DNA of 64,000 nt from Klebsiella phage Sealy: sequence record PQ337358.1; one strand, written 5' to 3'. Position 1 is the stretch's first letter; every line of letters starts with the position of its first letter. Positions 30,754-41,151 of this stretch are shown here, piece by piece. The notes under the pieces are model-generated. The model did not search any database. It had not been told where the DNA came from and worked only from the letters and a program-made list of their open reading frames with translations. The position numbers and the translations under genes were made by a program.

Positions 30754-33700
30754 TTACCTTATATGAATGTACCCGTTAGCCAGGTCTATTTTCATTGTGT
30801 ACGTACCTTCCGGGTTAGAACTCAGTGCGGCAGCCCTATTATATAGGATGTCAACACCAATTTGCGCCAGGAACGCGTTGTTTGCAATAATCTTATCCGC
30901 AGTGATAGAGCCGGAAACGATCATATCACCGTGAACAGTTAGTGCAGGAGCTGTCCATGCTGAGCCATTCCATTGGCGAGTCCAGGAGTTCTGGGGGGAA
31001 CCTGACTTATACTGAGTCAGTACATCATACTTAACTGGCGGTCCAGCGAAGGTTGACTGGAAGAACGATGCTGCTTGAGTGTCATTCCACGCAGTCAGGT
31101 TTGATATCGGCTGGGTGTAGAACCCCGGCCCACGATCCCCTACAGCGTCATACTGGTTACGGACATATGACGTTACAAAGGCTCCCTTTTCAATCTTACA
31201 CCTTCCAACAACGTTATTCCCGCCGGATTCGTTAACAGAGAATCTAACAGATATCCTATCTGAATTAGCCGGTGTAGTGAAGGTAAAGCTGCTCAAACCT
31301 GCAGTAGTAGACGCAATAGTCTTCAGCACCCCTCCAGTGCTGTTACTTCCCTTAGCGTACCAGAATACATGACAACGAACTTCCACAGCGTTATCAGTCT
31401 CGAAAGACATCGTATATGTGGTGCTTGGAGGAAGGTAGGTGAACATGGAGGCGGACCCATCTGATGGGAGGGTATACGCATCGGTAACTCCTGTACCTGC
31501 AATTATCCTAGCCCGTAATAACTCATAGTTCTTACCTATAGAGGAACCGTTTCCTGCAACCCCAGTAATTGAGTCTAACCAGGCCTTAAAGTAGAATAGG
31601 TTCTCGTTAATACTATCCCCGTCTAGGCGAATAGGATCTGACCAATTACCCATAATAGCATTAGTTTCCCCGTTAAACTCGGCCTTAACCATCCATAGAG
31701 GGCTACCTGGAGGGGGGCTATCTGACCATCCAGCCGGATTACTACCAGAAGGCCTACTAGGAGTGCTCGCCATTACGGCGAACTTCATACTCACATAGTT
31801 GCCTTTAGAACCTGGAGTACCATTAGCCCCGTTCTCACCTACTGCTCTGATCGCAGGACCCCAGGATCCATTCACCTGCTGACGCATGTACAGATCACCT
31901 GAAGTGAACGTACTGTGCCAGTTAGTAGACCCATCCTTAGACCATTGAACGTTTACAGAGTTACCTGCTGGCCCTTGCGGACCAGTAGCACCAGTGTCCC
32001 CTTTGTTACCTTGAGGACCTGTATCACCCTTGTTACCTTGAGGACCTGTGGCACCAGTATTACCTTGTGGACCTTGTGGACCAGTAGCACCATCCATAGA
32101 CAGATCTTCAATCGCTATAGCCGCAATGTATGCAATGCCGAAAGGCGTTGCGCTACCACCCATCTGGATAAACGGTCTAGCCTCGACAGTCGGCTTACCA
32201 TCAGAACGGTCCCCTACGGTAATTACCCTGCTTTCCAAACGCCATCCAGTAGCGTCTTTAGCTGGGGCTGCGGTGGCTGCTGGCCATCCAGTATTATCCT
32301 TATCTGCGCTTCGACAGTGTAGACCGAGGTTAAGAGCATACTCCCCTTCTGAGTTATTAACCCAGGCGGTTATACGGTATTTCATCCCTTTCTTAGTAGG
32401 GAACCAGTTGTTGCCTTCGTAGGTATCACGTGAGTTCACAGAAAACGCTTTCTTGTGCCCTCCCGGATCTCCTCCGGTAACATCAACTATAGGTTTGCCC
32501 CAACTATTTGACGATCCGTTGTCAAAAGAGCCTGTCATAACCCTGTCGTATCCAATCCCCGGGATACTCTTCTTAAGGGTATAGCGCTTGACTAAGGTAC
32601 CGTACTTAGGATGACTAGCCTGGTAGTTAACCCAACCAGATACTACGTCTATACCGTCAGGCATACCGCTAGGAGTGTAGTAACCAGAAGAGTTGATGTT
32701 TCCGTTCAAGTTCTCTTTCTGGTCAACACCCCCGACAACCTCTACTCCGAAGGTACACTGGCTAGTAACATCAACTGTTCCGTAAAACACTTTGAAGTAG
32801 CCATTAGTGCCATTCCAATTCTGAATAAACCCGTAAGGGTTACACAGAATAGAAGCAGATTCGTTAGTCAAATACCCTACTAGAGAGTTCACACCATCCT
32901 GTAGTCTAACGATTGTGATAGTATCAGTCATTCCATCACAGGTTGCGGCTACTGTAACGTAGTCCGAGCTGCCAAACTGGGCGGAGGTAATAGTCTTATT
33001 AGTGGCTGTGCCACCTAAAGATATGTTAGCTCCTGCCTGGTTCTTGGCTGTCCAGGTTATCGCAGCACTAGTATTCTGTCTCCAACTATCAATCTTAATA
33101 GTACCGTTAGACTTCAGGTTACCATTAGTATCAAAGCTAAAGGACAGACTATCGGACGTTAATGCGAAGGCTTTGGCATTAGTACCACTTGGACCTTGTG
33201 GACCTTGTGGACCAGTAGCACCCGTGGCTCCTGTATCACCCTTATTACCCTGTGGACCCTGTGGACCTTGAGAACCATCAGCACCAATAGTGTCCAATTC
33301 ATTCCTGATGAACGCTGTAGCGAAATCCCCCTCTTCCAGCTTGATATTGGAGATAACGTTGGTACTACCAGGGACATTCAGAGAAACACGAACAGAAATT
33401 CTATCGCATCCCTCAGGAATAGTAAATGACCAGCTAGTTCTACCTGCAGAGTTTGATGCTACCCATGAGAACACATTAGATCCACTAGCCCCTACCGGGA
33501 TAAAGAACACGTGCATTCTCATTTCCAGGGCGCTATCCGTGTCAAATGACATAGTGTAACGCTTACCAGCAGTGACTTTAGTAAAGGCCGTTCCACCTCC
33601 ACTGTACGGGCCAGTATAAGAATCCCCTACACCAGCTCCTGAATTGATACGTAAACGCAGTTCATCAGGATTCTTAGTAATGGTGGATCCACTTCCGCTC

Positions 33701-41151: not shown

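Follow-up and report, generated by a model that had tools for sequence, protein, structure and literature searches.

Why does a T5-like phage carry a central tail-fibre gene of five times the T5 length, and where in the protein do the additional residues lie? The question is raised by a window of 64,000 nucleotides from Klebsiella phage Sealy (record PQ337358.1; the window is the whole stretch of DNA analysed), in which an uninterrupted open reading frame (ORF) of 10.4 kb on the minus strand encodes 3465 amino acids (aa) in the position of the T5 gene for pb4, a protein of 688 aa. The initial annotation of this DNA, made from the letters alone, had called the product a collagen-repeat central fibre with pb4-type ends. 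Its coordinates for the ORF, its placement between hub and collar-like genes and its figure of about 690 aa for T5 pb4 are all borne out. The ATG start lies directly past the stop of the upstream gene and, from base composition, the probability of a stop-free run of 3465 codons is about 1e-84. A megablast search with the gene matched 66 phage records, all from Klebsiella phages, and at least 80% of the gene was covered by one match place in 31 of them, which come from several continents. The closest were vB_KpnS_Boggle_ER46 and Shiner, with 99.1% and 98.6% DNA identity, respectively. Where taxonomy was read among the matches it was genus Sugarlandvirus, family Demerecviridae, relatives of T5; the window is Klebsiella Sugarlandvirus DNA. 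The protein matches the 3453-position profile of PHROG 3890, 'straight fibre tail protein', over its full length (6441 bits, PHROGs v4), and several of the 66 records label the gene 'straight fiber tail protein' or 'central straight tail fiber protein'. PHROG matches of the neighbours and annotated synteny in Shiner and IME260 place it between the genes for hub protein pb3 and collar protein p132. Judged by its sequence, the gene is real and encodes a T5-type pb4 enlarged five-fold.

The gene, its size, its identity as pb4, its collagen and lectin- or immunoglobulin (Ig)-like modules, its pb5 partner and a capsule hypothesis are already known, so the initial suggestion of an undescribed adsorption device does not hold: the gene is found in 66 phage records, has its own PHROG family, and its domain make-up, models and proposed function have been published. 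Concha-Eloko 2023 noted collagen and galactose-binding-like (GBL) or carbohydrate-binding module (CBM) domains and proposed capsule traversal (PMC10714931), and a 2026 paper in Viruses modelled pb4 orthologues of 3446-3454 aa as pb5-bearing proteins in which collagen helices connect lectin-like and Ig-like domains (PMC13611949). Pectobacterium phage My1 also has an enlarged pb4 gene, as has vB_Kpn_IME260, which is among the earlier records of Sugarlandvirus. IME260 gp091 (3474 aa), Shiner CPTShiner_150 and Lyra Gp157 are the same gene in the same position and differ from the Sealy gene only as alleles, as does the collagen- and GBL-bearing 'RBP beta' (RBP, receptor-binding protein) of vB_Kpn_K7PH164C4. 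What we add is a precise location of the insertion point on the T5 structure, the recognition of that point as a hot spot across Demerecviridae, a module map in which the CBM-like parts are the variable ones, and the argument that the T5 trigger relay would be broken by an insert lying in line. These additions sharpen the experiments that are needed and do not make the finding itself new.

The pb4 core and the position of the insert

Against the Protein Data Bank sequences of T5 pb4 (7ZLV, 7ZN2, 7ZN4 and 7ZQB), phmmer aligned the giant protein to 7zlv_i with E = 1.5e-291 and in two pieces. Residues 1-563 align to T5 pb4 1-561 at 61% identity and residues 3336-3465 to T5 pb4 559-688 at 72%; by region, identity is 59% in the fibronectin type III (FN3) domains, 69% in spike strands beta1-15, 72% over the last 130 aa and 76% in strands beta16-24. 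The three Pfam domains Fn3-I, Fn3-II and Fn3-III_PB4 (PF24169, PF24170 and PF24171) are all matched at full length, with E between 6e-36 and 5e-59, in agreement with the FN3-like region noted initially. The PB4_spike match (PF24168) is split: residues 350-563 match profile positions 1-212, and residues 3337-3444 match positions 208-315. Since the alignment breaks at T5 residues 561/559, giant pb4 corresponds to T5 pb4 with 2,772 residues inserted at about position 560.

In the T5 tail-tip structure (PMC10038345, Linares 2023), spike strands beta15 and beta16 are separated by an excursion of the pb4 chain (residues ~484-626). It contains two small decoration domains, here d1 and d2, connected by linker 2 (548-566; PMC10038345), the sequence of which, GTEGVDGRPGATGQRGPGM, is (Gly-X-Y)6. 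By alignment, the insert falls within linker 2 and so inside the pb4 spike domain, with d1 before it and d2 after it. Both ends described as pb4-type in the initial annotation do align to T5 pb4, but what had been taken as the first ~620 aa consists of 563 aa of pb4 proper followed by an extra copy of d1 (565-625), and the insert does not separate self-contained N- and C-terminal regions. The d1-like sequence recurs: this extra domain and the C-terminal half of every module A (described below) align to T5 pb4 d1, and d1 and its copies have in common the motif KPxxPxxxxPxGWSxxPP...W/Y...N.L....WS. From these copies it follows that part of the array arose by duplication of d1 together with its Gly-X-Y linker.

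Giant pb4 and T5 pb4 are therefore alike in their three FN3 domains, beta-helical spike, d1 and d2 domains and C-terminal end, as well as in their gene neighbours and in the encoded pb5 partner. They differ in that a (Gly-X-Y)6 linker in T5 occupies the place of the 2,772 residues. In addition, no part in host recognition has been assigned to T5 pb4 (PMC10038345), whereas giant pb4 has eight predicted CBM-like domains per chain.

The same site is occupied to different degrees in other T5-like phages. In T5, Hongcheonvirus, Novosibvirus and Thalassavirus, pb4 measures 688-774 aa. From T5 onwards a graded series can be followed at this one site: pb4 of Proteus phage 2 (701 aa) has an unbroken run of 12 Gly-X-Y triplets, that of Vibrio phage Chester (774 aa) has 13 triplets and an extra d1-like domain, that of Pectobacterium phage My1 (1435 aa; PHROG 38396) has gained D, D-E and A modules, and that of Serratia phage Kamaji (1681 aa) A, A-B, A, D-E and A. 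Insertion at linker 2 in these phages makes this linker a hot spot across Demerecviridae, of which Sugarlandvirus is the extreme. The My1 and Kamaji proteins share the A, B, D and E kinds of module with giant pb4, but have far fewer of them and almost no collagen tracts, and the extreme C-terminus of My1 pb4 is also different. If the Gly-X-Y tracts of Proteus phage 2 and Chester form triple helices, then the pb4 spike would already be split in those phages.

Modules of the insert and their variation

A Gly-X-Y scan of the insert found seven unbroken tracts of 8, 10, 16, 18, 15, 12 and 15 triplets, amounting to 94 triplets or 282 residues, with mainly Pro or Ala at X and mainly Gln or Thr at Y (Pfam Collagen, PF01391, E = 1e-33). 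The seven hinges of the initial annotation are thus present as tracts, and their triple-helical form is a prediction. The tracts and the segments between them follow the order col-AB-col-DE-col-AB-AB-col-DE-col-AB-col-DE-col-AB (Table 1), which is the repeat order proposed initially, including the extra A-B pair that has no collagen and the final collagen-A-B unit. BLAST comparison of the inter-tract segments gave 39-58% mutual identity for the five A-B units and 40-46% for the three D-E units, and at the DNA level internal repeats are only 60-80% identical. Collagen-like phage tail fibres are also found in other families (PF01391; PHROGs 5073, 6320, 366 and 1806), and in these, as in giant pb4, the N-terminal part of module A comes after Gly-X-Y tracts. 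However, they are side fibres or minor tail proteins and not inserts in a pb4 spike, and none combines seven tracts with eight CBM-like domains.

Module E is CBM-like by sequence: a profile built on 26 copies of D-E, taken from ten phages, matched CBM22 of Paenibacillus Xyn10C across module E with E = 1.9e-7, as the initial annotation had anticipated, and Pfam CBM_4_9 appeared below threshold in 10 of the 26 copies. Module B is predicted to be a CBM-like beta-sandwich from an AlphaFold 2 model of A-B, built on seven sequences, with a predicted local distance difference test score (pLDDT) of 71 overall and ~80 across module B. An InterPro galactose-binding-like domain has been reported in the giant fibre protein (PMC10714931). 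The A-B profile found nothing significant among the PDB sequences. The A-B model also matched CBA120 TSP4 and Klebsiella phage Kp7 fibre proteins. Module D is probably Ig-like, an assignment made in the initial annotation and reached here on a low-confidence model. With hhalign, no homology was detected of B to E, nor of one half of D to the other. When single units were used in word-indexed protein searches, A-B gave three matches and D-E none, and the alignments used for modelling could not be deepened in this way.

Relatives of module D outside these phages form a large unnamed domain family, with 1,457 representatives at E < 1e-3 and up to 15 copies in metagenomic proteins as long as 6,475 aa. 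A member that was tested terminates in an endosialidase-chaperone domain (Peptidase_S74), typical of phage fibres, and the other giant proteins with module D are therefore probably phage fibres too. A separate observation concerns the collagen-coding DNA, which is repetitive with a 9-nt period (for example at 31957-32091 and 35293-35454) and may be a source of false CRISPR calls; 'orphan CRISPR arrays' have been reported in two Sugarlandviruses (PMC10100988).

Among Klebsiella Sugarlandviruses the pb4 genes are 82-99% identical in DNA, and most isolates have the same module order. The ORF is intact in all nine orthologues examined, six of which are full-length (3440-3474 aa) and three shorter by whole modules. 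In Sugarlandvirus isolates with fewer modules, pb4 of pKMKP103 (3174 aa) is without AB4, that of vB_Kpn9-P3 (3061 aa) without DE3, that of pzk-kv23 (2884 aa) without AB4 and one tandem A-B, and that of KPN4 (3205 aa) without AB5. Module losses are always in frame with junctions within collagen tracts, and tract lengths differ between phages by whole triplets. We compared module-wise identities between Sealy pb4 and full-length orthologues, leaving out Shiner, which is nearly identical to the window throughout. The FN3, spike, d1, A and D1-D2 modules are 92-100% identical and D3 is 80-82% identical, whereas the divergent modules B1-B4 and E1-E3 range overall from 27 to 88%. Identity is 35% in B1, 62-85% in B3 and 63-79% in E1-E3; for B4, four of five compared orthologues of full length give 27-79% and Shiner gives 100%, and B5 is conserved (95-98%). 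A conserved scaffold bearing hypervariable B and E cassettes is the pattern expected for ligand-binding parts that determine host range.

Table 1. Features of the Sealy window, grouped as the pb4 gene and its parts from N- to C-terminus, followed by other tail genes
Feature	Coordinates	Strand	Extent	Basis and remarks
pb4 orthologue gene, Klebsiella Sugarlandvirus central straight fibre	30754..41151	-	3465 aa	ORF list and translation; PHROG 3890
Three FN3-like pb4 domains	40105..41151	-	1-349	PF24169, PF24170, PF24171; 59% to T5
Proximal pb4 beta-helical spike (T5 strands beta1-15)	39697..40104	-	350-485	PB4_spike; 69% to T5; strand numbering PMC10038345
Decoration domain d1, Gly-X-Y linker (551-565) and extra d1-like copy (565-625)	39277..39696	-	486-625	Alignment to T5 pb4 484-566 and C-terminal halves of module A
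Collagen tract 1	39205..39276	-	626-649; 8 triplets	Gly-X-Y scan
A-B unit 1	38392..39204	-	650-920	A, small beta domain and d1-like domain; B, predicted CBM-like jelly roll
Collagen tract 2	38302..38391	-	921-950; 10 triplets	Gly-X-Y scan
D-E unit 1	37234..38301	-	951-1306	D all-beta, probably Ig-like; E CBM22/CBM_4_9-like
Collagen tract 3	37090..37233	-	1307-1354; 16 triplets	Gly-X-Y scan; Pfam Collagen
A-B units 2 and 3, tandem without intervening collagen	35455..37089	-	1355-1624 and 1625-1899	BLAST, orthologue comparison
Collagen tract 4	35293..35454	-	1900-1953; 18 triplets	Gly-X-Y scan; Pfam
D-E unit 2	34225..35292	-	1954-2309	BLAST, orthologue comparison
Collagen tract 5	34090..34224	-	2310-2354; 15 triplets	Gly-X-Y scan
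A-B unit 4	33286..34089	-	2355-2622	Missing in pKMKP103 and pzk-kv23
Collagen tract 6	33178..33285	-	2623-2658; 12 triplets	Gly-X-Y scan
D-E unit 3	32092..33177	-	2659-3020	Missing in vB_Kpn9-P3
Collagen tract 7	31957..32091	-	3021-3065; 15 triplets	Gly-X-Y scan
A-B unit 5	31147..31956	-	3066-3335	Missing in KPN4; B5 conserved
Remainder of linker 2, domain d2 and distal spike (T5 strands beta16-24)	30757..31146	-	3336-3465	T5 pb4 559-688; presumed pb5 docking end
Baseplate hub protein, pb3 homologue	41152..43998	-		PHROG 31; 'baseplate hub protein' in Shiner; immediately upstream
Collar protein, p132 homologue	30331..30750	-		PHROG 34807, 'collar tail protein for L-shaped tail fibre attachment'; immediately downstream
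Side tail fibre, pb1 position	27803..30331	-	842 aa	PHROG tail-fibre families; C-terminus resembles long-tail-fibre distal subunits
Receptor-binding protein, pb5 homologue	61170..63146	-	658 aa	phmmer to T5 pb5 8b14, 8a8c; PHROG 4815; in T5 located on the tip of pb4

In-line fibre or looped-out decoration

Given the position of the insert, we considered how the array might be arranged on the tail tip. We think it somewhat probable that the protein forms a trimeric, in-line, jointed central fibre whose CBM-like domains are used to thread through the capsule, with pb5 at its end. On this reading giant pb4 would trimerise and its Gly-X-Y tracts would form triple helices of together ~81 nm. The array would continue the fibre axis from the proximal spike (beta1-15) to a pb5-bearing distal mini-prism (beta16-24), giving a jointed fibre well over 100 nm in length. 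The 24 CBM-like domains of a trimer would provide weak multivalent binding of capsule or other surface polysaccharide, such that a depolymerase-free phage could grip the Klebsiella capsule and thread through it until pb5 meets its outer-membrane receptor. The strict periodicity of Gly over 94 triplets and the whole-triplet changes in length argue for genuine triple helices, and in published AlphaFold 3 models of the trimer the fibre is extended and its C-terminal prism binds pb5 (PMC13611949). The window also encodes a pb5 homologue that matches T5 pb5 over its full length (phmmer, E = 1.4e-143); given this gene and the conserved pb5-docking end of pb4, an outer-membrane protein is most likely still recognised via pb5. 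Sugarlandviruses have no depolymerases, cover a broad range of K-types and mostly need the capsule (PMC10714931).

Several points weigh against the in-line fibre. The insertion site is a side loop of an intact spike in T5, and it is because the insert sits within this excursion, between beta15 and beta16, that the extraordinary length first predicted for the central fibre is a matter of topology and not of sequence. An in-line fibre requires the spike to split into a 15-strand and a 9-strand part, and the two halves are the regions best conserved with T5 (69% and 76%), which would fit an intact spike too. The T5 (Gly-X-Y)6 linker has been modelled as a flexible linker (PMC10038345). In T5 the trigger for infection is a twist passed from pb5 via the spike to the FNIII linker, and a hinged insert of 2,772 residues in line would interrupt this relay. 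Sugarlandvirus GPH82 was blocked by the KL51 capsule until a depolymerase was added, indicating that capsule traversal is not general. The D-E model is of low confidence (pLDDT 55). Finally, we found neither virion proteomics nor electron microscopy of a long central fibre in the literature, and transmission electron microscopy reports describe only a 'central tail spike'.

The side-loop position and the trigger relay would be accommodated if the array were instead looped out as a decoration, an arrangement that we regard as possible but unlikely. The T5-like spike would remain intact with beta15 on beta16, pb5 would sit on a compact fibre of ~30 nm, and the array would leave and re-enter at one level, either as one trimeric folded-back tentacle or as three separate loops with domains like beads on a string. 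It would then act as a polysaccharide-binding 'mop' around the tail tip, and the T5 trigger relay would be retained. Insertion within the d1-linker 2-d2 excursion and strong conservation of both spike halves speak for such a loop. In addition, the T5 Gly-X-Y linker is not triple-helical in the solved post-binding structure (PMC10038345), and the 750-1000-aa inserts of My1 and Kamaji at the same site have little or no Gly-X-Y, as decorations of single chains would have. However, perfect Gly-X-Y over 94 triplets implies parallel, in-register triple helices with their ends far apart, for which a fold-back has no known precedent. The linkers for re-entry are short, with ~8 residues from B5 to d2, and in KPN4 a collagen tract of 22 triplets directly adjoins d2, both of which favour a coaxial arrangement with C3 symmetry. 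The AlphaFold 3 models also put the C-terminal prism at the fibre end (PMC13611949). The specific form in which the insert is a giant elaboration of the spike decoration, its ends anchored between beta15 and beta16 as a tentacle with 24 CBM-like domains or as three loops, is a shade more doubtful still. If true, it would be a topology without described precedent and would explain how a T5-type trigger survived five-fold enlargement of pb4.

We give almost no weight to the remaining alternative, that the length reflects repeat expansion in assembly or that the ORF is a relic not made into virions, and reject an assembly artefact: public genomes of the genus are mostly short-read and length variants (2884-3474 aa) could include mis-joins in collagen tracts, but repeats this dissimilar in DNA and protein leave nothing for an assembler to expand, the ORF is intact in every orthologue examined and widely distributed among records, and the long-read assembly of Sugarlandvirus GPH82 has the usual genome size of 111.7 kb. 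Against a dead gene stand the improbable stop-free run and the combination of conserved scaffold and variable CBM modules, which indicates selection acting on the protein.

Host range and neighbouring genes

Sugarlandviruses are among the Klebsiella phages of broadest host range and carry no depolymerase, and therefore how they handle the capsule matters for phage therapy. Giant pb4 is an obvious candidate for this role, as others have already proposed. We also asked if giant pb4 is the locus altered in the K47 host-range recombinants (PLoS Biol 2025) and rejected this, as the K7_rec genomes, among the matches listed, are near-identical there (9751-9762 bits, 86.2% identity, same coordinates). 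The swapped 'RBP gamma' could be folded as a single model, and the gene whose swap gave K47 infectivity (PLoS Biol 2025) is most likely that of the side fibre. Between PMC10714931 and PMC12654880 there is no consistent use of the names RBP alpha, beta and gamma. The text of PMC10714931 gives the collagen/GBL protein as 'RBP beta' and also as the most divergent RBP (78.9%), and the same 78.9% is assigned to 'RBP gamma' in Table 2 of that paper and in PMC12654880. Care is therefore required when citing which RBP sets host range.

The order of the tail genes (tape measure, distal tail protein, hub pb3, giant pb4, collar p132, side fibre and dUTPase) agrees gene for gene with that of Shiner. The tape measure protein (44724-49814, minus strand) has 1696 aa, of which the T5-type profile (PHROG 3779, 1225 positions) covers only residues 473-1696. 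The ~470 additional N-terminal residues fit the tail length of 259 nm reported for Sugarlandvirus (PMC13611949), and the greater tail length may represent another adaptation to thick capsules. The window holds no tRNA genes.

Two small ORFs of 74 and 153 aa lie within 63260-63949 on the plus strand, head-to-head with the pb5 gene, and each has an N-terminal hydrophobic helix. Their site next to pb5 is that of the T5 llp gene for the receptor-blocking lipoprotein; a lipobox is absent from both ORFs, and the one of 153 aa matches no PHROG. The 842-aa side fibre, which the initial annotation had listed alongside the central fibre, is encoded as described, and its gene varies in size among Sugarlandviruses: it measures 2529 bp in the window, Shiner, pKMKP103 and pzk-kv23 and 2043 bp in Uniso31, Kpn2-P1 and IME260, and is split in vB_Kpn9-P3.

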